A stretch of DNA of 64,000 nt, taken from Nannocystis sp. SCPEA4 (lineage in GTDB: Bacteria > Myxococcota_A > Polyangia > Nannocystales > Nannocystaceae). Made by a program: the position numbers and the translations under genes. The stretch's first letter is position 1. Every line of letters starts with the position of its first letter. A model generated the notes under the pieces. It made no database searches. It was not told the DNA's origin and was given only the letters and a program-made list of their open reading frames with translations. Shown piece after piece: positions 5,166 to 62,635 of the stretch. Location: positions 204,752-268,751 of the forward strand of contig NZ_JAPNJX010000001.1 of NCBI RefSeq assembly GCF_026626685.1, read 5' to 3'.

Positions 5166-5246
5166 GGACATGCCCTGAAGGAAATGTCTCCCTGAGCATG
5201 TCTCTCCAGACATAGAAAAACGGCCATGTCCCCGTGGACATGGCCG
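5166..5246. repeat. GGACATGYCC-family palindromic tandem array (about 6 units, period 13-15 bp)
   Basis: Copies ggacatgccc, gaaatgtctc, gagcatgtct, agacatagaa, ggccatgtcc and ggacatggcc at spacings 15/13/14/14/15. It lies immediately 3' of the vWA lipoprotein stop and contains an AT-rich insert (catagaaaaacgg). Confidence 0.8.
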
Positions 5247-5280
5247 TGTGAGCGCGCCTCGGCGCCGCGCGCGCTCGACC

Positions 5281-5799
5281 TCATTGCGGGACCGGCGGGA
5301 CGGTGCCGGCCCACGTGATCTCCGGCTGCTTCGCCGGCTTCTTCGCCGTCTTCTTCAGCTTCGCCGGCACCTTCCCCGCCCAATCGATCGCCGGCTGCTT
5401 CTGCTTCTCCGGCACCTTCCCCGCCCACGTGATCGCGGGCTGCTTCGCCTTCGTCGGCGCCTCCCCCACCCACTCGATCGCGGGCTGCTTCATCTTCTTC
5501 GGCACCTCCCCGGCCCACTCGATCGCCGGCTTCTTCATCTTCGTCGGCACCTCCCCCGCCCACTCGATCGCCGGCTTCTTCGCCTTCGGCGGCTTCGCCG
5601 GTCGATCGGCATCGACGCGCCGGGCCGGCTTGCCGAAGCCGTGGCGCACCGAGTCGCCGTTGAACGACGCGCCGTGGCCCCGGCTGGCCACGAGTGGCGC
5701 GGGGCCGTCCGCCCCCCACCCGCCGGACGACGCGAGCGTGAAGCTGCAACCGGTCACGCTGAAGAGGAGCGCCAACAGGGTCACGATGAGCTTGTGCAT
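5281..5799 (-). CDS. lipoprotein with eight tandem 12-aa repeats (KKPAIEWAGEVP)
   Basis: Signal peptide with lipobox (FSVTGC) and a 36-bp DNA tandem repeat; GC3 bias is consistent with real coding. Confidence 0.6.
   Translation of the reverse strand: MHKLIVTLLALLFSVTGCSFTLASSGGWGADGPAPLVASRGHGASFNGDSVRHGFGKPARRVDADRPAKPPKAKKPAIEWAGEVPTKMKKPAIEWAGEVPKKMKQPAIEWVGEAPTKAKQPAITWAGKVPEKQKQPAIDWAGKVPAKLKKTAKKPAKQPEITWAGTVPPVPQ
5305..5600. repeat. 36-bp coding tandem repeat (about 8 copies) inside the lipoprotein gene
   Basis: The unit cttcgccggcaccttccccgcccaatcgatcgccggctg repeats with variants. Confidence 0.7.
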
Positions 5800-6062
5800 T
5801 TGTTTTTTAAACCTCGGTGCGCACGGACGCGCGTCGACTTCGCCTATTCAGGCGATCGCCGATGGCCGCAGATCGGCCTCTGCTCACGGCGTCGCGGCCG
5901 CCGGCGCGTGGTGCGGTGATTCGACTGCCAATGTCATGACATGACCCGAGAGACATCTCATCCGCGCATCCGCGCCAGCGACCTCGACCGGACGCGACTG
6001 TGGGCTGGGGCCTCCGCGACCCGTTGCGCTCGCGCCGGCCTCGGGCTCATCATGCGCGCCCC

Positions 6063-6929
6063 ATGCACCACCCCGCGCACCTCCGACACGTCACGGCCGT
6101 GGTCCTCGCGCTGAGCGCCTGCGGCGACGACGGCGCCTCGCCCCTCACTGCCACCGCCACGGCGGCGAGCAGCTCGCCCACCGCGGCCGGCACCACCGAG
6201 CCCGGCGAGGCCGGCAGCGAGAGCACCGACGCGACGGCCACCGAGCCCGCGCCGACCAGCACCGACGCCACCACGGACGCGAGCAGCGACGCCACCACCA
6301 CGGCGCCGCTCGACGTCCCGGGTGGGGTGTTCTTGTGGACAGGTGCGGGCGGTGGCGGCCCCGCCACCGATCTGTACGTCGACGCGGTCGTGGACGTGCT
6401 CACCGGCGCCGGCGTCCCCGTCGCTCAGGGGACCGAGCTGCCGGACGGCTTCGCCCAGCTGTACGGCACGCTGGTGTACATGAACCCGCAGACCGTGTTC
6501 CCGGCCGAGGTCGACGCGGCCGCGTCGGCGCTGGTGAACGGCGGCGGACGGCTCGTGCTGGTAATGGAGCACTGCAAGAACGGCTGTTGGAGCAACGCGG
6601 ACGGCCACAACACGCTGCTCGCCGCGCTCGGGGCCGACATGCGGCTCGCCGGCGACGGCGGCGCGGATCTCGAGTCGACCGTCCTCGACGTCACACCGAC
6701 GCCGCCGCTGACCGACGGCGTCGGCTCGCTCGTCGCCTACTACTCCGGGCACGTCGTCATGGGCCCGGACAGCGTCGCCGTCGGACGGATCTCCGGCGGC
6801 GACGTCGTCGTCGCGCTCGAGACGATCGGTGCCGGCGAAGTGCTGGCCGTCGCCGACTCGTCGATGCTCGGCTACGTGCTGGGCGAGGCCGACAATTCGC
6901 GGTTCGTGGAGAACTTCGCCCTGCACTGA
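6063..6929 (+). CDS. hypothetical secreted lipoprotein
   Basis: Signal peptide plus lipobox (VVLALSAC) and a Thr/Ala/Ser-rich linker. The start is chosen inside ORF 6000..6929. Confidence 0.5.
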   Translation: MHHPAHLRHVTAVVLALSACGDDGASPLTATATAASSSPTAAGTTEPGEAGSESTDATATEPAPTSTDATTDASSDATTTAPLDVPGGVFLWTGAGGGGPATDLYVDAVVDVLTGAGVPVAQGTELPDGFAQLYGTLVYMNPQTVFPAEVDAAASALVNGGGRLVLVMEHCKNGCWSNADGHNTLLAALGADMRLAGDGGADLESTVLDVTPTPPLTDGVGSLVAYYSGHVVMGPDSVAVGRISGGDVVVALETIGAGEVLAVADSSMLGYVLGEADNSRFVENFALH

Positions 6930-6944
6930 TATCCTCGCCGCTCC

Positions 6945-8060: not shown

Positions 8061-8066
8061 CCCATC

Positions 8067-8166
8067 GGACATCTCGTCGGGCTCGGCGACATGCCCCTGC
8101 AGACATGCTCGATCAGGCATGTCGCCATGGACATGCTCGATACGACATGTCGCATCGGACACCGCG
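8067..8166. repeat. GGACATGYCC-family tandem array (about 7 units, exact 14-bp period)
   Basis: CATG cores at 8090, 8104, 8118, 8132 and 8146. Units are gcgacatgccc, agacatgctc, aggcatgtcg, ggacatgctc and cgacatgtcg. It sits between convergent gene ends. Confidence 0.85.
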
Positions 8167-8167
8167 C

Positions 8168-10558: not shown

Positions 10559-10575
10559 CGCCGCCCCTTCGTACT

Positions 10576-10740
10576 GGATGTCTGTATGGACATGTCCCTT
10601 CGAGCACCATGCCGCGGCGCGCGATGCCAGGTCGCTGCAACGCATGGCTTCACGGACATGTCCTGAATCTCATCTTCCAGGGTTCGCGCCGCGCGATGAC
10701 CGGTCGCCGCGACGCCTGGCTTCACGGACATGCCCTGAAG
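10576..10740. repeat. GGACATGYCC-family element with ~66-72-bp higher-order tandem repeat (2.5 copies)
   Basis: ggacatgtcc at 10588 and 10654, and ggacatgccc at 10726. The unit shape is gcNtggcttcacggacatgYcctgaa plus cgcgccgcgcgatgaccggtcgccgcgac. Confidence 0.8.
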
Positions 10741-10831
10741 GTCACCTCTCCGCGCCCGCCCGCGCCAGCCCTTCACCCTGCTCCCCGGCGAGCCGAAGCC
10801 CGTATCGCCGCACCTGTGCGCCTCGACCCGC

Positions 10832-12634
<1,803 letters not shown>

Positions 12635-12803: not shown

Positions 12804-13247
12804 ATGCACTTTCGCCCGGCCACGAGCTCCGACGTCCCCGCGATCCTCGACATGATGGAGGACTTCAACCGCCTGGAGCACATCCCGTGGCAGCGCGGCC
12901 CGGGCGAGGCGCCCCTGCGCACGCTGATCGGCTCGCCCGCGCTCGGCACCGTCGGCCTCGCCGTCGAGGGCGACGCTGCCCTCGGCTACTACATCCTCAC
13001 CTGGGGCTTCGACCTCGAGTGGGGCGGCCGCGACGCCTTCCTGACGGAGCTGTACCTCCGCCCCGAGCTCCGCGGCGGCGGCCGCGGCCGCCTGGTCCTC
13101 GACGCCGCCCTGGCGACCGCCCGGGCCCACGACGCCCGCGCCATCCACCTCATGGTCCGCACCGACAACACCCCCGCCCTCCAGCTCTACCGCAGCGCCG
13201 GCTTCTCCGCCCCACCGCGCGTGCTGATGACGCGGCCGCTCGATTGA
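12804..13247 (+). CDS. GNAT family N-acetyltransferase
   Basis: 147 aa with acetyl-CoA-binding-like RGGGRGR. Confidence 0.75.
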   Translation: MHFRPATSSDVPAILDMMEDFNRLEHIPWQRGPGEAPLRTLIGSPALGTVGLAVEGDAALGYYILTWGFDLEWGGRDAFLTELYLRPELRGGGRGRLVLDAALATARAHDARAIHLMVRTDNTPALQLYRSAGFSAPPRVLMTRPLD

Positions 13248-13312
13248 ATATGTTACAAAGGGCATGCTCTTCAGGACATGCCACTTCGGACATGTTATAA
13301 AGAGCATGTTTT
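13247..13312. repeat. GGACATGYCC-family tandem array (5 units, 14-bp period, partly AT-rich)
   Basis: CATG cores at 13263, 13277, 13291 and 13305. Units are gggcatgctc, ggacatgcca, ggacatgtta and gagcatgttt. Confidence 0.8.
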
Positions 13313-13462
13313 ATGGACCAAGGCGACGACGGCGCCCTGAGCCAACGGTGGCCACTCGCCACGTCGACCCCTCGGTTCACTGGCGCTGTTCTGACCAAAC
13401 TCGCGCGAGCTCCCCGTCAGCCACTCCGGCGCCGCGCCCCTTCGTCGTGATAGTCTGGCGCG

Positions 13463-14209: not shown

Positions 14210-14213
14210 TCGC

Positions 14214-14282
14214 TCCGACATGTCCTTCCGAGCATGCTCGTCACGACATGCTCTCACGAACATGCTGGTTCGAACATGTATG
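14214..14282. repeat. GGACATGYCC-family tandem array (5 units)
   Basis: cgacatgtcc, gagcatgctc, cgacatgctc, gaacatgctg and gaacatgtat with CATG at 14218, 14233, 14247, 14261 and 14275. It lies between convergent gene ends. Confidence 0.85.
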
Positions 14283-14320
14283 CGGGGCAGCTCGGATGCG
14301 CTGCTCACACCGCATCGCGT

Positions 14321-15904: not shown

Positions 15905-16257
15905 CCCAGCGCCGCGAACGCCTCGGCGAGCGGTGCCGGTCCTGGACCCTTCGTCTCGGGCGCAGGCGGCGGCTTCGGCGGCGCCGCGGGCGGCGGCAAG
16001 CTGGCCCAAAATTCATGTCCCAGGCGTTTCTCGTGGTCGCGCAGGGCCGCCATCGCCGCGCGCACCTTGTCCTCGGTGCGCGCGCGCGGCCCGAGCGGGC
16101 TCATGTAGGTCGCGGCCGACTTGAGCTTGAGCCCGAGCATGCCGAGCAGCTTCTGGCCCTCGCGCTCGACGTCGACCCGGGTGCAGTCGGGCCGCAGCCC
16201 GAGCACGTGGAACGGGTTGTCGGCCAGCGGCTCGTATTCGTCTGACTTTTGCGACAT
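15889..16257 (-). CDS. J-domain-like co-chaperone (HPD motif not evident)
   Basis: NPFHVLGLRPDCTRVDVEREGQKLL resembles J-domain helices I-II. There is a Pro-rich C-terminus, and it sits immediately downstream of Hsp70. Confidence 0.5.
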   Translation of the reverse strand: MSQKSDEYEPLADNPFHVLGLRPDCTRVDVEREGQKLLGMLGLKLKSAATYMSPLGPRARTEDKVRAAMAALRDHEKRLGHEFWASLPPPAAPPKPPPAPETKGPGPAPLAEAFAALGWRRS

Positions 16258-16300
16258 GGCGCTTCCCCCAGGTCCTTTACGACATGGCCGAACAGACAGT

Positions 16301-21138: not shown

Positions 21139-21238
21139 GCCGCGCCTGAGCGAACGGGCAGGTCCTCCGGAACCTGCCCGTTCGTACATGTGCGTTCGGG
21201 CCTGTCGCCGAGGACATGTCGCCCCGGCAGCGACAGCT

Positions 21239-26205: not shown

Positions 26206-26270
26206 TGGTGTCTCGAAAGGCATGCCCCGAACGACATGCCCGAAAGGGAATGGCCCGAAGGACATGCTCC
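26206..26270. repeat. GGACATGYCC-family tandem array (4 units)
   Basis: aggcatgccc, cgacatgccc, gggaatggccc and ggacatgctcc. Confidence 0.75.
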
Positions 26271-26284
26271 TCCGGGCAGGCAAC

Positions 26285-28867: not shown

Positions 28868-29764
<897 letters not shown>

Positions 29765-29802
29765 GTCCGATCTCCGGTGTCCTAGAGGTCATGCTCGAAA
29801 GT

Positions 29803-31250: not shown

Positions 31251-31327
<77 letters not shown>

Positions 31328-38860: not shown

Positions 38861-38865
38861 ACGGA

Positions 38866-38943
38866 CGGACATGCGCCGAGGGGCATGTCCCTTCGAGCAT
38901 GCGTCCCGGGACATGCCCTTGCGGACATGCCCGAAGCGACACT
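38866..38943. repeat. GGACATGYCC-family tandem array (5 units, exact 14-bp period)
   Basis: CATG cores at 38870, 38884, 38898, 38912 and 38926. It sits between the convergent HK and pirin genes. Confidence 0.85.
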
Positions 38944-40312: not shown

Positions 40313-43204
40313 TCAGCCGCGCTCGCTCGGGTCGAGGCCCTGGATCCCCGCCACCATCACCGCGTGCAGGCGGGGCTCGTCGATGTGGGCCGCGATCGCG
40401 TCGGCGGTGAGGTCGCGCAGGCGGACGATGTCGACCAGCGTCTTGCCCTCGGGCGTGATCGGCGGGAGCACCTGGACATCGATCTGGACATGTCGCGGGA
40501 GCCAGGTGCCGTCGTGCAGCGCGTTGCGAGTGCCCCGCAGCGCGATCGGCACCACCGGCACGCCGGTCTCGGCGGCCAGGCGGAACGCGCCGAGCTTGAA
40601 CGGCCGCAGCCCGGCCTCGCGGCTGAACGTGCCCTCCGGGAACACCACCACCGGCGCGCCCGCGCGCAGCACCTCCGCCACCGCCTCGAGCCCGGCCAGC
40701 GCCCGCTCCGCCTGCAGCCGCTCGATCAGCACGTGACCGGCCCGGCGGATCAGCGGCCCGAACGCCCGGTTGTCGCGGCACTCGCCCTTGACCACGAAGC
40801 GGATCGTGTCGGGCAGCGCCGCCAGCAGCACGAACGGGTCGAGGTAGCTGCAGTGGTTGGGCGCGAGGATACATGGCCCTTGGGGCATGTTCTCGAGGCC
40901 AGTCACGTTCGGGCGCAGGCCGATCGTCGCCATCGTCGCGCGGGCGACCTGGCGCGAGAACTTCCGCAGCGGCGCGCCCGACGGGATCAGCCGCCCGGCC
41001 GCAGTCGACGCGGCGAGCATGCCGCCGAAGGTGCCGAGGGCGAAGCCGCCGTACGCGACCTCGCCGGCGCGCCCGGCCAGCGCGCGGGCGCGGCGCGGCA
41101 GCCCGCGCAGGTACAGCCCGGCGGCCTGGCGAGCGAACGAGCCGTGGCCGCGCCCGAGCTCGCCGGCGAGGTAGAGCTTGCGCGTGTCGCCGCGGCGGAT
41201 CTTGCCGCTCGACGTCTTCGGCACCGCGCCGGGCGCCGTCAGCACCACGCGATCGGGCGGGATCCCGACCGACGCCGCGATCGCCTCGCCGATCTTCTGC
41301 TGCAGCGCCGAACGGGCGGCCGGCCGCTCCTCCTTCGTCTCGGCGACCACCACGATCGACTCGGTCCCGGCCGCCTCGTCGCGGACGGCGAACGCCGCCA
41401 CGCAGCCTTGCCGCACTCCCGCGACCGCGCCCGCCGCGGCCTCGAGCTCGTGCGGGTAGTAGTTGCGGCCGCCCTTGATGATCAGGTCCTTGACGCGACC
41501 CGAGATGAACAGCTCGCCGTTGACCATGTACCCGAGGTCGCCCGAGTCGACCCAGCCGCCCTCGAGCTTGACCTTCGCGGTCGCCTCCGGGTTGCCGTAG
41601 TAGCCCTTGAACGTCGACGGCCCGCGGAACAGGATCCGGCCCTGCTGCCGATCGGGCAGCGCCGCGCCGGCCTCGTCGGCGATCCGCACCTCGTGCTTCG
41701 GCACCGCCGCGCCGCAGCCGACGAAGTGCAGCACCTCGCCCTCGGGCGCGTCGGCGGCGGCCTGTCGCGCCTCGCCCGTCGCCTCGAAGGTCGTGCGCTC
41801 GACGCGATCGACCAGCGGTCCGCGGCCCGGCGGCGGGAACGTCACCGCCACCATGTTCTCGGCCAGGCCGTAGGCGCAGAACAGCGCCTCGCGGTGGAAG
41901 CCCGCCGGCGCCAGGTGCTCGGCGAAGCGGTCGAGCGTGGCCGGCAGGATCGGCTCGGAGCCGTTGAGCAGCGCCCGGATCTGGCCCAGCTGCAGCGGCG
42001 CGATCGCCTCGGGCGCGACCCGCTTGACGCACAGGTCGAACGCGAAGTTCGGCGCGCACGCGATCGTCCCGTGGTAGCTCGAGAACGCCTGCAGCCAGCG
42101 CTCCGGCCGGGCCAGGAACGTCACCGGCGACAGGATCACCGTGGGTGTCCCGAAGTACAGGTTCATCAGCCACCCGCCGACGAGCCCCATGTCGTGGTAG
42201 AGCGGCAGCCAGCTGACCATCACGTCGCCGGGCCGCAGCCCGCAGCCCTCGGCTGCCGCGCGGATGTTGGCGAGCACGTTGGCGTGCGTCAGCTCGACGC
42301 CCTTCGGGTCGCCGGTGCTGCCCGACGTGTACTGCAGCAGCGCCGTGTCCTCGCCGCGCAGGTCGGCCGCCACCGCGGTGTCGAGGCTGGCGTCGGCCAG
42401 CGCCTCGTCGACGTCGAGCACCTGCCCGAGCGCCGGCACCTGGTCGCGGATCAGCTCGGCGACCCGGGCCGCGCGGGCGAACGTGATCAGCACCTCGGCC
42501 TCGGCGTTGGCCAGGATCTTCGCCTCGCGCTGGATGTACTCGGCGATCCGGTCGAGGCGGAACGGCGGGTACAGCGGCACCGGCACCCCGCCGGCCAGCA
42601 GCGCGCCCATGAACGCCGCGAAGTAGCCGCGCGACGTCGGCAGCATGATCGCCACCTTGCCGCCCGGCTTGAGCCCGCGCCGCCGCAGCCCCGCCGCCAC
42701 CCGCCCGGCGTCGCGCCGCAGCGCCGCGTAGGTGATCGGCTCCTCGCGCCCGTCCTCGCGCAGCAGCATGATGTGGACCCGCCCCGGCGCGCGCGCGACG
42801 TGCCAGTCGAGCGCCTCGATCAGCGTCTGCGCCGCCGCCGGGGCCGGCGCCGGCGCGTCCGTCGGGAGAGACAGGTCCTCGCGGACATGCTCCTTCGGAC
42901 CTGTGCTCGTGGACATGTCCGAAGCGCCCTCCCCGCGGGCCTTGCGGGCCAGGGCGAGCAGCTGGCGCGGGGTGTCGGCCTCGCTCAGCGCCTCCTCGGG
43001 GAACACCACACCGAGGCGGGCCTCGAGGCGGCCGAGCAGCTCGACGCGCTCGAGGCTGCCGAGGCCGAGCTCGCGCTCGAGCGAGGCGTCGAGGCGGAGG
43101 TTGCCGAGGCCGCGCCCGTCGCCGACGGCGGAGATGAGCTCACCGACGACGGCGAGGACCGTCGCCTCCTCGATGGGGCCGGGGGCCGGGGGCGTGTCGG
43201 GCAT
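40313..43204 (-). CDS. tri-domain ACP - fatty acyl-AMP ligase (FAAL/acyl-ACP synthetase-like) - 1-acylglycerol-3-phosphate acyltransferase (PlsC-like) fusion
   Basis: N-terminal carrier domain (LGLGSLERVELL), AMP-binding motifs (YTSGSTGDPKGV, GYYGNPEAT), and a C-terminal HxxxxD acyltransferase motif (NHCSYLD, FPEGT). An in-frame repeat array sits in the ACP-FAAL linker (42866-42922). Confidence 0.8.
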   Translation of the reverse strand: MPDTPPAPGPIEEATVLAVVGELISAVGDGRGLGNLRLDASLERELGLGSLERVELLGRLEARLGVVFPEEALSEADTPRQLLALARKARGEGASDMSTSTGPKEHVREDLSLPTDAPAPAPAAAQTLIEALDWHVARAPGRVHIMLLREDGREEPITYAALRRDAGRVAAGLRRRGLKPGGKVAIMLPTSRGYFAAFMGALLAGGVPVPLYPPFRLDRIAEYIQREAKILANAEAEVLITFARAARVAELIRDQVPALGQVLDVDEALADASLDTAVAADLRGEDTALLQYTSGSTGDPKGVELTHANVLANIRAAAEGCGLRPGDVMVSWLPLYHDMGLVGGWLMNLYFGTPTVILSPVTFLARPERWLQAFSSYHGTIACAPNFAFDLCVKRVAPEAIAPLQLGQIRALLNGSEPILPATLDRFAEHLAPAGFHREALFCAYGLAENMVAVTFPPPGRGPLVDRVERTTFEATGEARQAAADAPEGEVLHFVGCGAAVPKHEVRIADEAGAALPDRQQGRILFRGPSTFKGYYGNPEATAKVKLEGGWVDSGDLGYMVNGELFISGRVKDLIIKGGRNYYPHELEAAAGAVAGVRQGCVAAFAVRDEAAGTESIVVVAETKEERPAARSALQQKIGEAIAASVGIPPDRVVLTAPGAVPKTSSGKIRRGDTRKLYLAGELGRGHGSFARQAAGLYLRGLPRRARALAGRAGEVAYGGFALGTFGGMLAASTAAGRLIPSGAPLRKFSRQVARATMATIGLRPNVTGLENMPQGPCILAPNHCSYLDPFVLLAALPDTIRFVVKGECRDNRAFGPLIRRAGHVLIERLQAERALAGLEAVAEVLRAGAPVVVFPEGTFSREAGLRPFKLGAFRLAAETGVPVVPIALRGTRNALHDGTWLPRHVQIDVQVLPPITPEGKTLVDIVRLRDLTADAIAAHIDEPRLHAVMVAGIQGLDPSERG

Positions 43205-47554: not shown

Positions 47555-47610
47555 TTCACCATGCCTGTTCGGACATGCCCCAATCGACATGTCCATTCAA
47601 GCATGTCACA
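47555..47610. repeat. GGACATGYCC-family tandem array (4 units, 14-bp period)
   Basis: CATG at 47560, 47574, 47588 and 47602. Confidence 0.8.
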
Positions 47611-48457: not shown

Positions 48458-48536
48458 TGGTTCATGCCCGAAAGACCATGCTCCTTCGGACATTCTCCTC
48501 AAGACATGTCTGTTACGACATGCCCCGGAGTGTCAC
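48458..48536. repeat. GGACATGYCC-family tandem array (6 units)
   Basis: CATG-like cores at 48464, 48477, 48491, 48506 and 48520, between the two Cys-rich paralogs. Confidence 0.8.
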
Positions 48537-50541: not shown

Positions 50542-50543
50542 CG

Positions 50544-50596
50544 GGACATGTCCTCACGGACCTGGCTCACTCGCCATGTCCTTTATGACCTGTCGT
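50544..50596. repeat. GGACATGYCC-family tandem array (4 units) overlapping the speE 3' end
   Basis: ggacatgtcc at 50544, then ggacctggct, cgccatgtcc and tgacctgtcg. It encodes the last ~10 codons of speE. Confidence 0.75.
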
Positions 50597-51502: not shown

Positions 51503-51985
51503 TCAGCCGCGCGACCGGCGGCGGCTGACGATCATACCGAGCCCGGTGGCCACCAGCGCCAGCATCCCGAGGCCCGCGAGCAGCGCGGCGGCCTGCCCCG
51601 GCAGACCGACGATCTCGCCGGTGTGCAGCTTGAAAAGCAGCTGCGTCAGCCCGCCCGCGGTGCGGCGGCGCTCGATCAGCGAGCCGTCGCCGGCCAGGTA
51701 GAGCACCGTCTCGTCGTCGTCGTCGAGCCAGAACACCCACGGCGCGTCGGGTTCGGTGGCCAGGCCGATGTCGGTGATCACCTCGTCGCCGGCCTCGCGC
51801 TGCGCGCGCGCCAGCAGCGCCTCCAGCGCGAGCGGCTGCTCGACCACCGGCGCGGTCGGCGGCGGCACCTTCGCGCAGCCGCGGAACACCAGCATCGCCC
51901 CCGTCAACGCGATCACGGCGAACACCGCCGCCAGCCCGGCCCCGACCGTCTGGTGCAGCTTGAACAGCCTTCGGCGCATGCTCAT
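51503..51985 (-). CDS. PepSY-associated TM helix domain protein
   Basis: Duplicated LFKLHQ.. and LFKLHTGE motifs flank TM helices. Confidence 0.6.
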   Translation of the reverse strand: MSMRRRLFKLHQTVGAGLAAVFAVIALTGAMLVFRGCAKVPPPTAPVVEQPLALEALLARAQREAGDEVITDIGLATEPDAPWVFWLDDDDETVLYLAGDGSLIERRRTAGGLTQLLFKLHTGEIVGLPGQAAALLAGLGMLALVATGLGMIVSRRRSRG

Positions 51986-52040
51986 ACGGACATGCTCCTT
52001 CGTTCATGCCCCTTGCGACATGTCCTCACAGCATGGCCCC
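51975..52040. repeat. GGACATGYCC-family tandem array (5 units, 14-bp period)
   Basis: CATG at 51977, 51991, 52005, 52019 and 52032. It spans the PepSY start and TBDR stop, and the TBDR C-terminal residues are encoded by the array. Confidence 0.8.
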
Positions 52041-54479
52041 CCAGGTGCGCCAGAACCACCGCTCGATCCGGCGCACGCCGGCGGTCCAGACCCGGCGGTT
52101 GACCTTGCCGGCCTTCCAGCGCATGCGCGCCTGCTCGCCGGCCTTGCCGCGGATCCACTCGTGGGCGAAGCCCAGGTTGAAGTAGAACGTGCGCGGGCGC
52201 ATCGGCAGGATGCCGCCGTTGATGTCGTCGGAGCGGGTGAACCACTGCTCGTTGAGCAAGTTCTTGACGCCGACGGTCGCCTCGAGCCGCCAGCCCTGCG
52301 GCAGGGCGGTGCGGTAGCCCAGCCACGCGCCCATCAGGGTGTAGGCCGGCATCGTCCCGACCTCGCCGGTCGCGCGCGGCGCGTCCCAGTTGGCGTAGTC
52401 GGTGTACTGCTTGTCGACCCACTCGATCTTGGTGCCGACGCGCAGGCCGAACGGCGCCTCGTAGCTGGCCGAGCCCCACACCTCGTGCGCCGGGTACCAC
52501 GGCATGCGGTTGCCGGTGTAGAGGTCGCGCAGCACGCGGCTGCCGTTGTAGGCGTAGCCGGCGTTGAACTCCAGCCCCTCGACCTTCTCCCACACCTCGC
52601 CGGGCAGCCACTCGACGTCGACCTCGGCGCCGTAGGTGTGGGCCGCCGGGATGACGTCGATCGCGTTCTCGCCCTCGTCGCGCAGGTTGTTGAAGTAGCG
52701 GTACCAGCCGTCGACGGTCGCGTACACCCCGCCGAGCTCCATCAGCTTGACGCCCGCCTCGACCGTGTCGGCCAGCTCGGGCTTGATGAAGCGCAGCGCC
52801 CGGCCCATCGCCTCGCCGGGGTTGATCGGCTGGATCGCCCCCGACAGGTAGCTCGGCGCGCCGAACGAGCGCCCGTAGCCGAGGTAGAGCCCGACGTAAT
52901 CGCCGCCGTACCACAGCGACGCCGCCGGCAGCGGCCCGCCGTAGAACGGCCGCGGGTAGCTCACGCCCTCGAGCACGTTGTAAAAGCTCTGCTTGGTCAG
53001 CTCGAGCCGCACGCCGGCGGTCAGCACCAGCTTGGTGTCGAGCAGGTAGATCTTGTCCTCGAGGTACAGCGAGTAGCCGCCGATCCGGCCGTCGAAGCAG
53101 CGCAGCGCGTTGGGCGAGCCCTCCGGCAGCACCGCGCCGCGCGGGCACACGCGCGCGTCGCCGTCGGCCTGGAGCGGGTCGCCGGGGCGCCCGGGGAACT
53201 CGACGCGGAAGCCGCGGATCCGCGCCGCCTCGAACACCCCGCGCGTGCCGATCGAGATGTCGTGGAAGCCGCCGCGGTGGCGCACGCGGAACGCGTAGCG
53301 CGGCTCGATGCCGACCACGTCGAACGCCCGCGGCTGCACCAACAAGAAGGTCGGCGCCGCGCCGAGGTTGCGGTCCTCGTTGGTCGCCTGGACCACGCGG
53401 CGCAGCGTGTGGCTGTAGAACGCGATCACCTGCAGCTCGTGCTCGGCCTTCGGCGTCCACCGCAGCTTGAGGCTGGTGCCCTCGCGGTGGCCGTTGAAGG
53501 TGTCGAACGGGCGGTTGCTGGAGAATCGATCGTCGGCGTAGGTGGCCGAGTCGAGACCGCCCGGCAGGTTGGTCTTCTCCCAGAACAGGTGCGTGCTCGA
53601 CAGCAGCTCGATGCGCTTGGTCACCGGCACCTGCAGCTTGACGATCCCGCCGTGGCTCTGAAACTCGCTGTGCTCGCGGTACGTCTTGCCGAACCGCGGC
53701 GCGTACTCGACGTACACGCCGACGCCCTTGTGCGTGCCGCCGTACGAGGCCGCCGCGCCGGCGTCGCCGAACTGGTCCGACTGGGCGAACACCGACACCG
53801 TCGGGTTCTTCGGGATCGGGTGCGACACCATGTTGAACACGCCGCCCGACGTCCACGGCCCGAAGCGCACCGACGAGCCGCCGCGCACCGTGTCGACGCG
53901 GGCGATCTGGAACAGCGACAGCGGGAACAGCACCATCGACGGCGCGCCGTACGGGGCCGGCGCCACCGGCACCTCGTCGAGCAGGATCGTCGCCTGCTCC
54001 GACAGCCGCGGGTCGGCGCCGCGGACCGCCAGGTTGAGCTTCGTCGCCGACGTCCCGAGCCCCGACGCGCCCTCGACCGCGCGCACCCCCGGGACCTTGT
54101 CGAGCAGCTCCGCCACCCCGCTGGCGCCCTCGGCCTTGGCGTCGTCGACGTCGACCACCGCGCGCCCGCCCGCGTGGCGGTGGGCGTCGATGCGGGTCGA
54201 GCGGCCGAGCAGGTCGGTCGTCACCTCGATGTCGCGCGACTCGCCCGGCAGCACCTTGGTCCCGGGGGCCAGCGGCGGCTCCTCGGCCTCGGGCGCGGCC
54301 GGGGCGGTGACCGTCGGACTGCCTGTCTCTTCGGGCATGCTCTTCGGAGCAGGCTCCCGAGAGAATGTCCAATCGGACCTGTCCTCCGGAGCAGGCACGT
54401 CCGGAGCCGCGTCCGGCCCGTCGTACGCGCGCGGGTCGGCGGCCAGGAGCAGGGCCAGGCTGTACGCGAACGGCGGCAC
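52026..54479 (-). CDS. TonB-dependent receptor
   Basis: Plug motifs (IEVTT.., VRAVEG), multiple beta-barrel strand motifs; 817 aa. A degenerate repeat array (54317-54398) lies in-frame after the putative signal peptide. Confidence 0.85.
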   Translation of the reverse strand: MPPFAYSLALLLAADPRAYDGPDAAPDVPAPEDRSDWTFSREPAPKSMPEETGSPTVTAPAAPEAEEPPLAPGTKVLPGESRDIEVTTDLLGRSTRIDAHRHAGGRAVVDVDDAKAEGASGVAELLDKVPGVRAVEGASGLGTSATKLNLAVRGADPRLSEQATILLDEVPVAPAPYGAPSMVLFPLSLFQIARVDTVRGGSSVRFGPWTSGGVFNMVSHPIPKNPTVSVFAQSDQFGDAGAAASYGGTHKGVGVYVEYAPRFGKTYREHSEFQSHGGIVKLQVPVTKRIELLSSTHLFWEKTNLPGGLDSATYADDRFSSNRPFDTFNGHREGTSLKLRWTPKAEHELQVIAFYSHTLRRVVQATNEDRNLGAAPTFLLVQPRAFDVVGIEPRYAFRVRHRGGFHDISIGTRGVFEAARIRGFRVEFPGRPGDPLQADGDARVCPRGAVLPEGSPNALRCFDGRIGGYSLYLEDKIYLLDTKLVLTAGVRLELTKQSFYNVLEGVSYPRPFYGGPLPAASLWYGGDYVGLYLGYGRSFGAPSYLSGAIQPINPGEAMGRALRFIKPELADTVEAGVKLMELGGVYATVDGWYRYFNNLRDEGENAIDVIPAAHTYGAEVDVEWLPGEVWEKVEGLEFNAGYAYNGSRVLRDLYTGNRMPWYPAHEVWGSASYEAPFGLRVGTKIEWVDKQYTDYANWDAPRATGEVGTMPAYTLMGAWLGYRTALPQGWRLEATVGVKNLLNEQWFTRSDDINGGILPMRPRTFYFNLGFAHEWIRGKAGEQARMRWKAGKVNRRVWTAGVRRIERWFWRTWGAML
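54317..54398. repeat. degenerate GGACATGYCC-family array (6 units) inside TBDR N-terminal coding region
   Basis: gggcatgctc, gagcaggctc, gagaatgtcc, ggacctgtcc and gagcaggcac with a 14-bp period. Confidence 0.65.
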
Positions 54480-54485
54480 GGCGGT

Positions 54486-55763: not shown

Positions 55764-55802
55764 CCCGGCCGCACGTCCAAGTCCGCCCTTCAGGAGATTT
55801 CC

Positions 55803-57071: not shown

Positions 57072-57098
57072 CCGCGAGCGGCAATATGTCCGGACTGC

Positions 57099-57515: not shown

Positions 57516-57653
57516 GCTCCACTTCCTGCCGCGGTGTGCGCGATCTTGACGCAAGGTCACATCTCGCCGCTCCAGTCCTGCTGCGCCGCCGCCGTCCAGG
57601 CGTGGCACACTGCGGGCGCGTGGCCCCGGCCCGGAAGGAGCCCAGTTTTACCC

Positions 57654-57968: not shown

Positions 57969-58189
57969 CCCGGCGCGACCCGCCGCATCGACCTGACCTG
58001 TGAAGGGCGGCGCCACGGCGCCGCTCTTCGCGTTGGTCGCGCCTCCACGTCGTGCTCACCGGCTGTCGAGCAGGGGCTCCGCCCTCTCCGCGCCACGGAG
58101 GATCGACGCTCGCTCCAGTCGTGTTCGCCGCGCCGGTCCGCTCACCGACGGCGATCTCTGCTGCGGGCGCGGCGCGCCGGACCTCCTCG

Positions 58190-59332: not shown

Positions 59333-59340
59333 TCGCCTCC

Positions 59341-59445
59341 GCGATGCTCCTCGCCCTCTCCTGCTCGAACGACCATGCTCCCTGGGCCATGCCCCAGGAA
59401 ACATGTCTGCTCGAGCATGACCTCACGAACATGTCCCCGGGAGCC
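59341..59445. repeat. GGACATGYCC-family tandem array (6-7 units, 14-bp period)
   Basis: CATG at 59374, 59388, 59402, 59416 and 59430, between the two flippase-like paralogs. Confidence 0.85.
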
Positions 59446-59453
59446 AACCCCTC

Positions 59454-60440
59454 GTGAGCCCGCGCCTGCGCACCGCGCTCAAGCTGCTGCTCGGCCTCGG
59501 CCTGGTCGCCGGCCTGGTGTGGTGGCTCGTGCCCGGCGGCGACGAGCTGCGGGCCGCGTTCGCGCGCGCGCAGCTGCGGCCGGCGTGGCTCGGCGTGTGC
59601 TTGCTGGCGACCTTCCTGGCCACCCTCTTCACCAGCGCGCGCTGGCGGCTGATGGCCGAGTCGATGGGCGGCAACCGCCTGCCGCACATCGCCTACTTCC
59701 ACAGTCTGGCGCTGACCAAGATCCTCGGCCAGGTCAGCTCGGCGTTCGTCATGGACATCGTCGGCCGCGGCGTCGCCCTGCGGGCCGCCGGCTCGCAGCG
59801 GGGCCTCGGCCACGCCATCACCCAGGCCGTGCTCGAGCGGGTGTTCGACCTCGTGCTCCCGGTCATGCTGCTCGCCTGGGCGGTGGTGGCTTGGCGCGGC
59901 GGCTTCACCGGCGCCGCCGCGGTCGGCTCGTTCGCCGGCGTGTGCCTGCTGTTCGCCGCGCTCGCGGCCGTGTTCCTGGCCCCGCTGACGCGCCTGGCCC
60001 TGCGCGCCTACGCGGCCGCCCGCGCGCTGCGGGCCCGCTGGCGCCGCGTCGCCGTCGACGACGCCGAGCTCGACCCGCCCGTCGTCGACCGCCGCCTCGC
60101 CGTGCAGATCGGCGCCTACAGCCTGCTGCGCTACCTCTCGGCCATGCTGCTGTTCTGGTCGACCGCCGCCGGGATCGGCGTCGACTTCACCTTCTTCCAG
60201 ATCGCCGCCGCCACCCCGATCGGCCAGTTCGCCGGCATGCTCGGCTTCACCCCGGGCGCTCTCGGGATCCAGGAGGCCGGGTGGGTCGGGGGCTTCAAGT
60301 GGGTCGGCGCCGACGACGCCGCGATCGCCCTGTTCGTCCTCAGCTCGCGCCTCATCATGACCGCCTCGTTCGCCGTGCTCGTGCTCGTCAGCTGGCCGCT
60401 GCTCCGCCGCAGCCGCGCCGCCGCGCCGCCGCTCGCATGA
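59454..60440 (+). CDS. flippase-like / LPG-synthase-TM-domain family membrane protein (paralog)
   Basis: GTG start, about 8 TM helices, and the same family features as 58190..59332. Confidence 0.55.
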   Translation: MSPRLRTALKLLLGLGLVAGLVWWLVPGGDELRAAFARAQLRPAWLGVCLLATFLATLFTSARWRLMAESMGGNRLPHIAYFHSLALTKILGQVSSAFVMDIVGRGVALRAAGSQRGLGHAITQAVLERVFDLVLPVMLLAWAVVAWRGGFTGAAAVGSFAGVCLLFAALAAVFLAPLTRLALRAYAAARALRARWRRVAVDDAELDPPVVDRRLAVQIGAYSLLRYLSAMLLFWSTAAGIGVDFTFFQIAAATPIGQFAGMLGFTPGALGIQEAGWVGGFKWVGADDAAIALFVLSSRLIMTASFAVLVLVSWPLLRRSRAAAPPLA

Positions 60441-60490
60441 ATGCCCCTTCGGACATGTCCGTCACGACATGTCCAGAACGACATCACGGC
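60440..60490. repeat. GGACATGYCC-family tandem array (4 units)
   Basis: gaatgcccc, ggacatgtcc at 60451, cgacatgtcc at 60465, and cgacatcacg. Confidence 0.8.
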
Positions 60491-62484
60491 GTGACGATGT
60501 TGAACGCCTGCGGGAACTGATCGAGCAGGCCGAGGAACTCCTCGACCGCCGCCCGGTTCCCGCGCAGCTTCAGCGTCCCGGCGGCGATCGCCTGGTCGAG
60601 CGACGTCTCGCCCGCCTGCAGCTCGATCAGCGTCATCTTCGACAGCGTCAGGCTCGCGTCGGCGCCGGCGACCTCGGCCGTCCGTCGCCCGTAGTTCAGC
60701 ACCCCGCGCGCGACGGTCAGCTCGTAGCGCTCCTTGGGCTCGGTGAAGTGGATGTCGAGCTTGAGCTTCGTCCCGGCCGCGCGCGCGCCGTTGAGGCGGA
60801 CGGCCATGAGGTCGAACAGCAGCGACGGCGGCAACGCGCGCAGCGTGTCCGGCCCGGCCGTCTGGCCCGCCGAGCCGCTCGGCACGCCATGGCGCAGCTC
60901 GTAGGCGCCTTGCAGGTACTCCGCGCGCCACGGCCCCGACTCCGCCTGGTAGCCCATTTGCTCGTAGGCGTCGGCCAGCAGCTCCTTGCCGGCCGCGCTG
61001 TCGGGGTTGGCGAACACCACGTGGCGCAGCACCTCGGCGACCCAGCGGTACTCCCCGCGCTCGAAGTCGGCGCGGGCTCGCTCGATCGCCGCCGCCTCGC
61101 CGCCCATGTACTCGACGTACTTGCGGGCCGCCGGCTCCTGCGGCAGCACGTCGAGGTCCGACGGGTTGCCGCTGTAGAAGCCCATGTAGCGCTGATACAC
61201 CGCTCGCGCGTTGTGGCGCACCGTCCCGTAGTAGCCACGGTTCGGCCAGTACTGCGCCAGGTCGGGCGGCAATTGCAGGTACTCCGCGATCTCCGGGCCG
61301 ATGTAGCCGAAGTTCAGCATGTGCACCGATTGATCGTGGATGTACTTGTAGAGATCGCGCTGCTTCTCGAGGTACGAGCGCACGTTGGCCTTGCCCCACA
61401 TCGGCCAGTGGTGGGCCTGGAACTTGACCTCGATCGCGTCGCCGTACAGCCCGATCGTCTCGTCGATGTACTTGGCCCACGCCAGCGCGTCGCGCACCTG
61501 GGCCCCGCGCAGCGTCAGGATGTTGTGAAGCGTGTGCGTCGTGTTCTCGGCCATCCACATCGCCCTGAACTGCGGGAAGTACGTGTTCATCTCGGCCGGC
61601 GCCTCGGTGTTGGGCGTCAACTGGAACACCATCTTCACCCCGTCGATGTTCAGCTCCTGGCCGGTCTTCGTGATCGACTGCGTCGGCGCGATCAGCGACA
61701 CCGTGCCCATCGCGTTCGCGATGCCGAGTCCGACGCCGACCGTGCCCTGGGGGTCGCGCGGCAGGAACGTCCCGTACATGTACGCCGCGCGGCGGGTCAT
61801 CGCCGCGCCCGCGAGCACCATCTCGCTCACCGCGTGGGCGAGGAAGCCCTCCGGCGCGATGATCCGCACCCGTCCCGCGCGCACGTCGGCCTCGTCGACC
61901 AGCCCGCGCACGCCCCCGTAATGATCGGGGTGCGAATGGCTGTAGATCACGGCCACGATCGGCCGGTCGCCGAGGTGCTGCTTGACCAGCGCGTGCGCGG
62001 CCCTCGCCGACTCGACCGTGAGCAGCGGGTCCATCACGATCCACCCGCGGTCGCCCTTGATGAATGTGATGTTCGCCAGGTCGAAGCCGCGCACTTGATA
62101 AACCCGCTCGGTCACCTTGAACAGGCCGTAGATCATGTTCAGCTGCGATTGTCGCCACAGGCTCGGATTGACCGTGTCGGGCGCCGGCGCGTCGCGGCGG
62201 ATGAACTTCTTGAACGGCTCGAGGTCCCACACCACATTACCGTCGCCGTCGGTGATGGTCAGCGTGTGCGGGCGGGCGATGAGCCCGCGCTCGGCGTCCT
62301 CGAAGTCGGCGCGGTCCGAGAACGGCAGCGACTGCAGCAGCGCCGCGTTGGCCTGCCGCGTCGCCTCGCTCGCCGGCTTCGGCCCGTTCGGCGCCGCGGC
62401 CAGCCCCGCGTAGGTCACACCAGCCAGCAGCAGTCCGATGGCGACGAACCAGATCCGCGAAACTTGAGCTCTGCGTGGCTGCAT
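60484..62484 (-). CDS. alkyl/aryl sulfatase (SdsA1-like; MBL fold + dimerisation + SCP2 domains) with signal peptide
   Basis: HSHPDHYGG metallo-beta-lactamase motif and an N-terminal signal. The start MQPRRAQVSRIWFVAIGLLLAG is chosen within ORF 60484..62577. Confidence 0.85.
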   Translation of the reverse strand: MQPRRAQVSRIWFVAIGLLLAGVTYAGLAAAPNGPKPASEATRQANAALLQSLPFSDRADFEDAERGLIARPHTLTITDGDGNVVWDLEPFKKFIRRDAPAPDTVNPSLWRQSQLNMIYGLFKVTERVYQVRGFDLANITFIKGDRGWIVMDPLLTVESARAAHALVKQHLGDRPIVAVIYSHSHPDHYGGVRGLVDEADVRAGRVRIIAPEGFLAHAVSEMVLAGAAMTRRAAYMYGTFLPRDPQGTVGVGLGIANAMGTVSLIAPTQSITKTGQELNIDGVKMVFQLTPNTEAPAEMNTYFPQFRAMWMAENTTHTLHNILTLRGAQVRDALAWAKYIDETIGLYGDAIEVKFQAHHWPMWGKANVRSYLEKQRDLYKYIHDQSVHMLNFGYIGPEIAEYLQLPPDLAQYWPNRGYYGTVRHNARAVYQRYMGFYSGNPSDLDVLPQEPAARKYVEYMGGEAAAIERARADFERGEYRWVAEVLRHVVFANPDSAAGKELLADAYEQMGYQAESGPWRAEYLQGAYELRHGVPSGSAGQTAGPDTLRALPPSLLFDLMAVRLNGARAAGTKLKLDIHFTEPKERYELTVARGVLNYGRRTAEVAGADASLTLSKMTLIELQAGETSLDQAIAAGTLKLRGNRAAVEEFLGLLDQFPQAFNIVTP

Positions 62485-62583
62485 ACGCCCACGATGGCCG
62501 AGGACCGCGCTCGCGCCAGTGACCGCGCCGCCTGCTCGTCGCGGCCCACGCCGCCGCGGAGGCCGCCGCGCCGGCATTCACCA

Positions 62584-62635
62584 GACATGACCTTGAAGAC
62601 AGCTGTGCAGACCTGCGCCGCGACGGACAAGCGCG
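62584..62635. repeat. degenerate GGACATGYCC-family array (about 4 units)
   Basis: agacatgacc, agacagctgt, agacctgcgc and cggacaagcg at ~14-bp spacing upstream of the sulfatase. Confidence 0.5.

Follow-up and report, generated by a model that had tools for sequence, protein, structure and literature searches.

The 64,000-nucleotide stretch of Nannocystis sp. SCPEA4 analysed here (the window) carries a family of phased CATG arrays that is real and far above chance. The arrays follow closely on stop codons, occupy most convergent spacers and are all but missing from divergent (promoter) spacers. We tentatively favour the reading that they are a genus-specific, bidirectional 3'-end element family of Nannocystis chromosomes, whose RNA stem-loops may act as terminators or stabilisers. 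Array density is ~2.75 per 10 kb, and a genome holds ~10,000 sites.

Phasing and unit anatomy

Pairs of CATGs in the window peak at distances of 14 bp (36 pairs), 28 bp (27), 42 bp (17) and 56 bp (7), and all remaining distances between 4 and 70 bp hold 0-5 pairs. When 240 CATGs were placed at random, the number of pairs expected at 14 bp was 0.9, and none of 2000 trials gave more than 7. The decamer GGACATGTCC occurs 7 times against 0.09 expected (about 78-fold over shuffles) and RRRCATGYYY 34 times against 2.27 (15-fold), confirming the repeat family described in an earlier note on this DNA. Across Nannocystis loci, 14-bp spacings were found 103 times and 13- and 15-bp spacings not at all. 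CATG outside the arrays is about as frequent in the window as base composition predicts, indicating that the site is not avoided.

Units of the family are present at 19/19 sites named by the earlier note, and the arrays at 21150-21225, 33727-33795 and 42881-42922 are additions to its list (Table 1). Sites 54317 and 62584 are degenerate arrays whose units are in phase but have mixed cores; of all sites on that list, 62584..62625 convinces least.

Table 1. CATG arrays and minimal sites in the window, with their units and surroundings
Position	Strand	Units	Location	Remarks
5166..5247	.	4 CATG plus degenerate in-phase units	convergent spacer (genes 4050-5165 + and 5281-5799 -)	units 5220-5247: 12-bp stem, then TTTTCT on the minus strand
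8084..8160	.	5-6	whole convergent spacer	
10573..10740	.	three short unit blocks	co-directional spacer	two of the three blocks within an apparent ~66-bp local duplication
13258..13315	.	4	begins 12 nt past stop of gene 12804-13247	
14214..14285	.	5	convergent spacer	
16250..16292	.	two CATG units 28 bp apart, degenerate unit between; minimal	43-bp spacer, Hsp70-like gene / 122-aa gene	found also in N. punicea but not in L200
19267..19337	.	two unit pairs	whole 69-bp co-directional spacer	
20074		1-2; minimal, as also 16252		
21150..21225	.	hairpin GGGCAGGTCC-N4-GAACCTGCCC plus two CATG units	convergent spacer	hairpin = two asymmetric-core units (CAGG/CCTG) in inverted order; kept in four genomes, among them N. 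exedens, N. punicea and N. pusilla
26216..26272	.	4 (one degenerate)	whole 81-bp spacer upstream of acyl-CoA dehydrogenase gene	orthologs of the array in four further Nannocystis genomes
29757..29797	.	two, 28 bp apart	38-bp thiolase / 3-hydroxyacyl-CoA dehydrogenase spacer	start codon lies within one CATG
33727..33795	.	in-phase CATG, CAGG, CCTG, CATG, CATG	inside long low-complexity ORF 31557-35495	where codon-position GC signal fades
38864..38936	.	5	convergent spacer (histidine kinase / pirin)	
42881..42922	.	in-phase CATG, CCTG, CATG	coding region of AMP-binding/acyltransferase gene	between two domains
47555..47610	.	4	52 nt past stop of gene 47661-48281	next start 157 nt away
48458..48527	.	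5 (one degenerate)	begins 7 nt past stop of gene 48533-49351	
50542..50583	.	two CATG units 28 bp apart, CCTG unit between	in and beside 25-bp operon spacer	
51972..52040	.	4-5	whole 40-bp spacer, TonB receptor / PepSY gene	no differences from N. pusilla L212; 3/3 aligned CATGs kept in N. exedens, many intervening positions changed
54317..54390	.	five in phase: CATG, CAGG, AATG, CCTG, CAGG	within predicted 5' part of TonB-receptor ORF	
59369..59440	.	5, perfectly phased	co-directional spacer	
60431..60475	.	2-3	whole 43-bp convergent spacer	4 units at this position in N. exedens
62584..62625	.	weak degenerate three-unit stretch: CATG, CAGC, CCTG in phase		

Each element consists of 2-7 units (exceptionally 12) at a rigid 14-bp period. 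The unit reads W-V-G-G-R-CATG-Y-C-C-B-W, that is, a near-invariant CATG between a purine-rich flank on its left and a pyrimidine-rich one on its right, plus a 4-nt spacer rich in A/T; units with CCTG and CAGG cores belong to the family too and keep the same register. The AT-rich spacers pointed out earlier are real, the two central positions being ~60% A+T in a genome of 72% GC. The palindromic core proposed earlier, GGACATGTCC, holds as the consensus, but when the window is pooled with the Nannocystis loci it is outnumbered by GGACATGCCC and its complement GGGCATGTCC.

The two flanks of a unit are no more self-complementary than left and right flanks combined at random, or even less so. The view that every unit is self-complementary was therefore not upheld, and individual units are not selected for this property. 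Flank identity between adjacent units is 0.415-0.44, compared with 0.40 between random units, so neighbours are generally no more alike than random and are not recent copies of one another; the family is not a slippage minisatellite. The unit has full dyad symmetry, and its composition does not depend on which way the adjacent genes are transcribed, as would be expected if the element is bidirectional.

Gene context and conservation

Arrays occupy 45/54 convergent spacers (~83%), 46/162 co-directional spacers and 2/49 divergent spacers (convergent versus divergent, Fisher p = 2e-17), which substantiates the tie to gene 3' ends and convergent spacers drawn in the earlier note. In a set not picked for arrays, the corresponding counts were 7/10, 23/59 and 0/11 (Fisher p = 1e-3). 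Where a co-directional spacer measures 150 bp or more, the array is closer to the upstream stop in 24 cases and to the next start in 7 (p = 0.003); the median distance from stop to array is 16.5 nt for all co-directional arrays and 30 nt in long spacers. Arrays are also found in 8/23 spacers of 25-50 bp, within likely operons. The placement at start codons noted previously is largely a side effect, since CATG contains ATG and units fill short operon spacers.

The window comes from an N. pusilla-like chromosome and is ~95.5% identical to GCA_020073745.1; the Myxococcota origin presumed in the earlier note is borne out. Arrays were found in 7/7 Nannocystis species sampled and were absent from the four relatives examined (ortholog at ~80% protein identity) and from viral contigs; the family is thus genus-wide in Nannocystis and not a local duplication. 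Between the window and N. pusilla L212, 1/84 core positions changed compared with 23/207 flank and spacer positions (p = 0.004); for N. exedens the counts were 12/82 and 94/205 (p = 4e-7). In three further species pairs, orthologous arrays retain the CATGs of the units they share without a change of register, and one of the pairs shows the loss of a unit. Arrays contain 3-6 times fewer gap positions than the remaining intergenic DNA does (p = 3e-5 and 0.006), and non-core array positions diverge faster between species than ordinary intergenic DNA. Judged from these alignments, CATG and the register are shown to be under purifying selection across species, with fast turnover at the other positions. 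Unit copy number in aligned arrays is equal in the window and the ~95.5% identical strain L212, and array presence or absence varies between species at orthologous spacers. Two arrays in L200 have near-identical adjacent units, indicating that slippage does occur.

RNA folding and transcript ends

In a transcript of either strand, any unit could pair with any other (RRR-CAUG-YYY on RRR-CAUG-YYY, with G-U tolerated), so that a run of units would fold into stable stem-loops, either as 10-bp stems with 4-nt loops or as nested long hairpins. Ten array strands were folded, and for nine of them the RNA z-scores lay between -2.1 and -6.9; arrays folded in both orientations gave such scores on either strand. 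The predicted folds are mostly nested long hairpins rather than the serial hairpins envisaged earlier, and one well-conserved array of five units (59369..59440) folds no better than shuffles (z = -0.86), which counts against the stem-loop reading. Arrays rebuilt from permuted units are less stable than natural ones by 0.43 kcal/mol per unit (p = 0.019), and asymmetric ACATGC/GCATGT units favour inverted over direct neighbours (46 versus 25). Against the stem-loop reading, about as many neighbours are inverted as direct for CCTG/CAGG cores once orthologs and coding repeats are removed; direct CCTG runs cannot pair mutually, yet stay in phase (L200 9919-9982); and pairwise covariation is weak, the pairing potential coming mostly from the unit consensus itself.

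The arrays resemble intrinsic (Rho-independent) terminators, including bidirectional ones, in lying a few to tens of nt past stops and in having stable GC-containing stem-loops on both strands, and the 5247-5220 pair with its T-run is a textbook case. They differ from such terminators in the invariant sequence that their stem centres have in common, in being multi-unit and phased, and in occurring also within very short operon spacers. A U-tract follows only 11/146 arrays, the same as on the antisense side, and ~92% have none, which excludes a canonical intrinsic terminator. Terminator-like sites of the canonical kind are at shuffle level in the first 20 kb (4 versus 3.0). The presence of arrays in very short spacers of likely operons makes full termination unlikely there and counts against the terminator reading.

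We hypothesize that the stem-loops may serve as bidirectional transcript-end signals, for termination, protection of 3' ends from exonucleases, or both, and may replace canonical hairpin-plus-U terminators, which are at chance level in the Nannocystis window. Stem-loop formation by itself leaves both the invariant CATG and the complete lack of 13- and 15-bp spacings without an explanation. A stem could form around any centre and with loops of varying length, so that the fixed CATG and a register free of indels most likely reflect a dedicated reader protein, which would recognise the structure or the DNA.

Alternative readings and known systems

A serious rival, which we consider possible though not probable, is a protein lattice on double-stranded DNA. 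An abundant, sequence-specific protein peculiar to Nannocystis would bind one unit per 14 bp and touch its neighbours, with the DNA wrapped at a 120-degree turn per unit and RNA structure incidental; at gene ends, such a lattice could possibly block transcription, serve as a supercoil or topoisomerase site, or organise the nucleoid. The invariant 4-bp core, the degenerate symmetric flanks, the absence of covariation and the register that never slips (indels selected against, substitutions free) all fit this proposal, as do the full dyad symmetry without strand bias relative to transcription, the conserved array without fold potential and the direct CCTG runs that keep phase. The architecture may be likened to that of tandem operator boxes, such as MetJ met-boxes (8 bp) and omega-repressor heptads (7 bp), to which ribbon-helix-helix repressors bind cooperatively. 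These also come as 2-7 contiguous short symmetric boxes in strict register, with conservation confined to contacted bases and with neighbours that are not mutual copies. However, they lie in the promoters of few operons, as binding-site arrays normally do, whereas the Nannocystis arrays are excluded from promoters, number thousands and have a 14-bp period. Moreover, their location mirrors terminators and not any known binding-site class, no candidate protein was found, and ~10,000 sites per genome would demand a very abundant one; a simple lattice also does not predict the small but significant excess of neighbour complementarity and inverted order. The two functional readings given in the earlier note, a stem-loop terminator or stabiliser in RNA or ssDNA and an array of protein sites, both survive the tests.

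Improbable, in our estimate, is a selfish or mutualistic element akin to REP/BIME, spread and maintained by a cognate enzyme (for instance a RAYT-type Y1 transposase acting on single-stranded hairpins) and tolerated only where harmless, at gene 3' ends. REP/BIME elements of Enterobacteria and Pseudomonas, which are associated with RAYT transposases, are likewise high-copy, extragenic, palindromic and tandemly clustered, lie between convergent genes or in operons and out of promoters, and have taxon-specific sequences; proposed roles of REP elements are mRNA 3'-end protection, termination and gyrase/IHF binding. The very high copy number within a single genus, the 3'-end and inter-cistronic placement, the hairpin potential and the variable presence at orthologous spacers agree with this kinship. 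Nevertheless, REP copies share 20-40 nt, whereas the 14-bp units are dissimilar and have in common only CATG and the R/Y pattern; they are rigidly registered head-to-tail without linker motifs, and no conserved head tetranucleotide lies outside the stem. The window proteins that were scanned include neither a RAYT nor any transposase or integrase, arrays have been retained at orthologous sites while their core is under purifying selection, and tolerance alone predicts far less than the 83% occupancy of convergent spacers. We regard as still more doubtful a role as phased targets of a CATG-specific DNA methyltransferase or a methylation-reading protein, which might set an epigenetic or replication-linked mark, by analogy with GATC clusters read by SeqA. 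CATG is the sole nearly invariant element, is palindromic as methylase sites are, and is not avoided elsewhere; however, methylation alone needs no 14-bp register, purine/pyrimidine flanks or 3'-end location, CCTG or CAGG can stand in for CATG without loss of phase, and the window contains no methyltransferase. A neutral by-product, in the form of slippage minisatellites or a compositional artefact, is very improbable. Slippage in the two L200 arrays and the fast evolution of non-core positions speak for it, but it is already contradicted by the dissimilarity of adjacent units, the extreme positional bias and the conservation of core and register between species, and disfavoured by the equal copy number in L212 and by the 15-fold and about 78-fold enrichments over shuffles.

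The earlier note had also judged that the repeats are not CRISPR, classical REP, MITE or IS ends, and this is upheld. Cyanobacterial STRR heptamers, HIP1, mycobacterial MIRU and Neisseria DUS resemble the arrays as genus-specific short motifs across intergenic DNA, and inverted DUS pairs double as terminators at gene ends. Unlike the Nannocystis units, STRR and MIRU consist of near-identical slippage copies within an array; HIP1 and DUS, in contrast to the arrays, are not phased and are common inside genes. None of the four has a 14-bp register with a CATG core. The decamer RRRCATGYYY matches the p53 half-site RRRCWWGYYY letter for letter, and literature matches for GGACATGTCC were p53 papers only. 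We rejected this link as a sequence coincidence: the host is bacterial, no p53-family protein is implied, and unlike the p53 response element the arrays run to thousands of copies, with spacers of 4 bp. A search of the literature, as far as it was searchable, found no description of this repeat, in keeping with the earlier note, which knew of no described family with this unit. The arrays look like an undescribed gene-end signal in Nannocystis, a genus of soil myxobacteria.

Phased arrays in the window and across the genus

The 240 CATG tetranucleotides of the window are strongly phased: 36, 27, 17 and 7 pairs lie 14, 28, 42 and 56 bp apart, respectively, and the remaining distances between 4 and 70 bp have 0-5 pairs each. 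When 240 sites were placed at random, 0.9 pairs fell at 14 bp, and none of 2000 trials gave more than 7. The window also contains 7 copies of GGACATGTCC (0.09 expected from dinucleotide shuffles) and 34 copies of RRRCATGYYY (2.27 expected); as an earlier note on this DNA had proposed, decamer and periodicity both exceed the expectation from composition. Units are present at all 19 sites named in that note, of which 54317 and 62584 are degenerate, the former lying within a predicted ORF. In total, the window holds ~22 arrays.

The unit consensus, W-V-G-G-R-CATG-Y-C-C-B-W, was derived without forcing the core and is symmetric about both CATG and the A/T-rich spacer. The unit had been described as built on a perfect palindrome; its symmetry is borne out, but the commonest decamer in the pooled window and Nannocystis loci is the asymmetric GGACATGCCC/GGGCATGTCC, ahead of the perfect palindrome. 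CCTG and CAGG cores occur within arrays in the same register as CATG, and CCGG cores do not join them in register in the Nannocystis loci. Spacing in these loci was 14 bp in 103 instances and 13 or 15 bp in none, although some loci are mutually orthologous and unit counts are thus not fully independent. A 28-bp super-unit was considered and rejected: some TRF periods are 28 bp, yet units two steps apart show no extra direct identity. All that persisted was a mild tendency towards inverted neighbours.

A search for five CATGs spaced 14 bp in bacterial and archaeal genomes, each species represented by one, returned at least 120 stretches. Among the matches listed, all divergent-unit stretches belong to Nannocystis (exedens, pusilla, punicea, bainbridge, radixulma and sp. 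RBIL2), and the others are ordinary perfect tandem repeats. The window itself is ~95.5% identical to N. pusilla GCA_020073745.1 across 21 kb, and its acyl-CoA dehydrogenase falls in a protein cluster containing all named Nannocystis species; exact look-ups of this protein and of two Nannocystis orthologs found none of them on record. Arrays are absent from the syntenic loci (L202-L205, L207) of four relatives with ~80% protein identity in the acyl-CoA dehydrogenase, one of which carries an ordinary GC-rich hairpin in a 3' spacer. Viral contigs gave no match to a specific 4x RRCATGYY pattern, their matches to a loose 4xCATG pattern being unrelated tandem repeats, and in metagenomes divergent-unit arrays were almost exclusively found in contigs of 69-77% GC. 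Therefore, the family is genus-wide in Nannocystis and, as far as sampled, genus-restricted, rather than a local duplication within the window. The searchable literature on the decamer, Nannocystis repeats or palindromes, myxobacterial REP and Myxococcota terminators held no description of the arrays and nothing relevant, and tRNA was the sole match in an Rfam search.

Similar architectures were encountered elsewhere. Seven unrelated, phage-like viral contigs of lower GC (L017, L020, L046, L051, L070, L071 and L073; ~46% GC) carry 14-bp phased arrays that share a core of ~WATWCATG and differ in the remainder of the unit. In two metagenome contigs (L241 and L311; 56-58% GC), four CATG units make up a stretch that is dyad-symmetric as a whole (gaCATGcctctgtagaCATGtcatatatgaCATGtctacagaggCATG) and is probably a different element.

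Position relative to genes was assessed with gene calls from a codon model trained on the window, in which start codons are approximate. Most Nannocystis loci had been picked for holding a long array, and counts are therefore also given for an unchosen set (the window plus L209-L211). Arrays occupy 45 of 54 convergent, 46 of 162 co-directional and 2 of 49 divergent spacers over all loci, and 7 of 10, 23 of 59 and 0 of 11, respectively, in the unchosen set (convergent versus divergent, Fisher: p = 2e-17 and 1e-3). This agrees with the enrichment at gene 3' ends that had been suggested from the window. Of 120 arrays, 11 lie inside called genes. Where co-directional spacers measure at least 150 bp, 24 arrays are closer to the upstream stop and 7 to the next start (p = 0.003), and several of these 7 look like start codons mis-called at CATG. 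Stop codon and array are separated by a median of 16.5-30 nt. Transcript-end signals would be expected to show this distribution, which REP/BIME elements share. At a density of 2.75 arrays per 10 kb, a 12-Mb genome would carry roughly 3,000.

The window has the gene content of an ordinary chromosome, including VgrG/PAAR, kinases, a beta-oxidation operon, a TonB receptor and a spermidine synthase. The tRNA sequence is 97% conserved in the uncultured Nannocystis locus L200 (about 4730-4820), and a similar sequence lies in a spacer of the array-less relative L207 (4559-5062). The long ORF shows a normal codon-position GC signal only from ~35495 down to ~33800; its remainder has 78-80% GC and 54-81 bp tandem repeats with CCTGTCC/GGACAGG-type units, and in N. 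exedens (L209, 2255-2630) the ORF holds five 75-bp repeats, each with a CCTG>CAGG unit pair. Either array-like units sit in a fast-evolving low-complexity protein tail, or the ORF is partly non-coding.

Coordinates of features in the window and of the hairpin shared with three other loci
Feature	Position	Strand	Remarks
PAAR-motif protein	window 120-740	minus	type VI secretion spike pair member
VgrG	window 756-2885	minus	Phage_GPD, Gp5_C and Phage_base_V domains; pairs with PAAR protein
45-bp tandem repeat	window 5343-5593		5.6 copies, 85% identity; inside gene 5281-5799 (minus strand; no Pfam match)
Hairpin CGGGCAGGTCC-N4-GGACCTGCCCG	window 21155-21185; L209 15215-15245; L210 15291-15321; L211 15809-15839		between convergent genes
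tRNA gene	window 31251-31324		between long ORF and thiolase operon
Long ORF	window 31557-35495	minus	about 1,300 aa; orthologs called in L200, L209 and L210

Predicted stem-loops at gene ends

With a self-complementary core, and with a purine-rich left flank set against a pyrimidine-rich right one, every unit would be able to base-pair with every other. Of 10 array strands folded as RNA, 9 gave strong predicted structures (z = -2.1 to -6.9), and where both strands of an array were folded, both did. The serial hairpins originally envisaged do not match the shape of these folds, which is usually one of nested long hairpins. Permuting the units of natural arrays costs 0.43 kcal/mol of stability per unit (p = 0.019), and asymmetric ACATGC/GCATGT units have 46 inverted against 25 direct neighbours (p = 0.017). 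Moreover, four genomes retain a hairpin made by an inverted CAGG/CCTG pair, in which the two asymmetric-core units give a perfect or near-perfect stem and the loop varies. Together with the canonical terminator at 5247-5220 described below, these observations amount to modest evidence of selection on pairing itself.

Other observations do not point to pairing. Within-unit complementarity of left and right flanks is no better than in random combinations, so selection for self-palindromic units was rejected. There was no unit-level covariation and no strand bias relative to transcription in a G-U versus A-C test of RNA-level selection. One conserved array has no special fold, and the units of direct CCTG runs in L200 cannot pair with each other. 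Neighbour orientation of CCTG/CAGG units (19 inverted versus 7 direct) fell to ~8 versus 7 without orthologs and coding repeats and is uninformative as a hairpin test. An invariant CATG centre and an indel-free loop length are not needed by a stem. This counts against a pure structure model, as do the missing covariation, the array without a special fold, the direct CCTG runs and the lack of U-tracts.

Arrays share with intrinsic terminators a stable stem-loop, here a predicted one, soon after the stop codon but lack the U-tract directly 3' of the stem: a T-rich hexamer follows 11 of 146 array ends, versus 3 of 48 on the antisense side. A clear stem plus U-tract was found only at 5247-5220 on the minus strand, where two units and TTTTCT make a canonical terminator for gene 5281-5799.

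A frozen core and register in fast-changing DNA

Neighbouring units at lags 1-4 have a flank-plus-spacer identity of 0.415-0.44, compared with 0.40 for random units. Units within an array are not recent copies of one another, and recent tandem duplication was rejected as their general origin. In orthologous arrays of three species pairs, the CATGs of shared units keep register while the intervening positions change freely; one unit was lost in one of the pairs.

Aligned positions differing between the window and two Nannocystis species (%)
Class	N. pusilla (L212)	N. exedens
Array core (CATG)	1.2	14.6
Array flank	7.2	44.7
Array spacer	17.1	47.6
Third codon positions	5.1	14.5
Other intergenic DNA	9.8	29

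The core differs from non-core array positions at p = 0.004 (L212) and 4e-7 (N. exedens). Relative to other intergenic DNA, non-core array positions evolve faster (odds ratio 2.1, p = 2e-6), and arrays have 3-6 times fewer gap positions (p = 3e-5 and 0.006). Since the core is conserved, gaps are rare and 13- or 15-bp spacings do not occur, selection maintains the four core bases and the register but hardly anything beyond them. The fast non-core divergence could reflect hypermutable hairpin DNA, conversion between units or diversifying selection. An alignment of window 40572-61540 to L212 and L213 displays non-core divergence ~2x that of other intergenic DNA, with indel depletion.

In individual spacers, arrays have been gained, lost or degraded. 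L200 has no CATG arrays in 21 kb orthologous to window 15-36 kb and carries young CCTG-core direct arrays in their place. A lineage-wide switch from CATG to CCTG was rejected, as a metagenome scan found normal CATG arrays elsewhere on the same contig (L288). Unit number per aligned array is the same in the window and the ~95.5% identical L212, and with neighbour identity at the random level this excludes a slippage minisatellite, two young CCTG arrays in L200 being a slippage-like exception. By eye, a ~66-bp local duplication at window 10600-10740 seems to carry one array unit per copy (…gcgcgatgccaggtcgctgcaacgCATGgcttcacggaCATGtcctgaa… twice); if so, units can spread within larger duplications too.

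Candidate readings and kinship with known elements

A short invariant core, degenerate symmetric flanks, a rigid register, intolerance of indels and absence of strand bias are the classical signature of cooperative binding to contiguous boxes. The arrays display each of these features, tolerating substitutions but not indels; a 14-bp period places successive sites ~120 degrees apart. Four bases and a register that are frozen, amid positions that change faster than ordinary spacer DNA, imply a putative reader. Because this signature stands beside the stem-loop evidence, our leading reading, held tentatively and at somewhat less than an even chance, is that the arrays are stem-loop elements acting at gene 3' ends in both directions, and that a dedicated putative reader maintains their core and register. 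This reader could be bound to double-stranded DNA (a roadblock, topology site or nucleoid organiser) or could equally be a protein that recognises stem-loops. A pure DNA lattice, with protein on double-stranded DNA at contiguous units, would account for the rigid register, core-limited conservation, disfavoured indels and lack of strand bias, as well as for the conserved array that lacks a special fold and the CCTG runs that cannot pair, but the modest signs of selected pairing (stability per unit and inverted neighbours) speak against it, and we consider it rather unlikely.

The extragenic, 3'-end or inter-cistronic and promoter-excluded distribution equally matches that of REP/BIME elements. 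These, however, share among copies a ~20-40 nt imperfect palindrome with a conserved head tetranucleotide, whereas the 14-bp units have only CATG and R/Y flanks in common, flank identity between units (0.40-0.44) being random. Moreover, REP genomes carry a cognate RAYT (IS200/IS605-like Y1 transposase) gene, usually REP-flanked, and no transposase or RAYT gene was present among the 30 window proteins scanned. A REP/RAYT-like element is improbable. No methyltransferase was found among the same proteins, and clusters of methylation sites are a very improbable explanation. A neutral by-product is scarcely credible, given that core and register are conserved between species and neighbouring units are not copies.

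Other known systems differ more plainly. CRISPR arrays, with near-identical 23-50 bp repeats and unique spacers of similar length, are excluded by the 14-bp period, 4-bp spacers and divergent units. Minisatellites and VNTRs (MIRU, STRR) have near-identical neighbours and copy numbers that vary between close strains, and the arrays have neither. MetJ/omega operator boxes resemble the arrays in their contiguous symmetric boxes, strict register and core-limited conservation, but they lie at promoters and have an identified repressor, whereas arrays take the opposite location. DUS/USS are over-represented genome-wide, including coding DNA, in contrast to RRRCATGYYY, of which 26 of 34 window copies lie in intergenic arrays and 8 of 34 in coding DNA. 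The letter-for-letter match of the array decamer to the p53 half-site RRRCWWGYYY is a coincidence. Taken together, the arrays come closest in their way of working to REP/BIME elements or bidirectional terminators, yet fail defining features of both, and are classed among dispersed extragenic palindromic repeats at gene ends.

The arrays may, as an outside chance, mark a new factor-dependent, sequence-specific transcription termination system. A dedicated Nannocystis protein would then read phased CATG units, on a DNA lattice or on nascent RNA stem-loops, stop or release RNA polymerase from both directions and replace U-tract terminators genome-wide at ~3,000 sites, a picture to which we attach the same low probability. 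The arrays could supply compact bidirectional insulator parts for myxobacterial engineering, and they would improve operon and terminator annotation of Nannocystis, a genus mined for natural products. For a family of bacterial repeats they evolve in an uncommon way, four bases and the register being frozen and the rest changing fast. It is an open problem how very GC-rich bacteria without recognisable U-tract terminators end their transcription units, and one genus with a single, easily recognised, conserved element at most gene ends makes the question directly testable.
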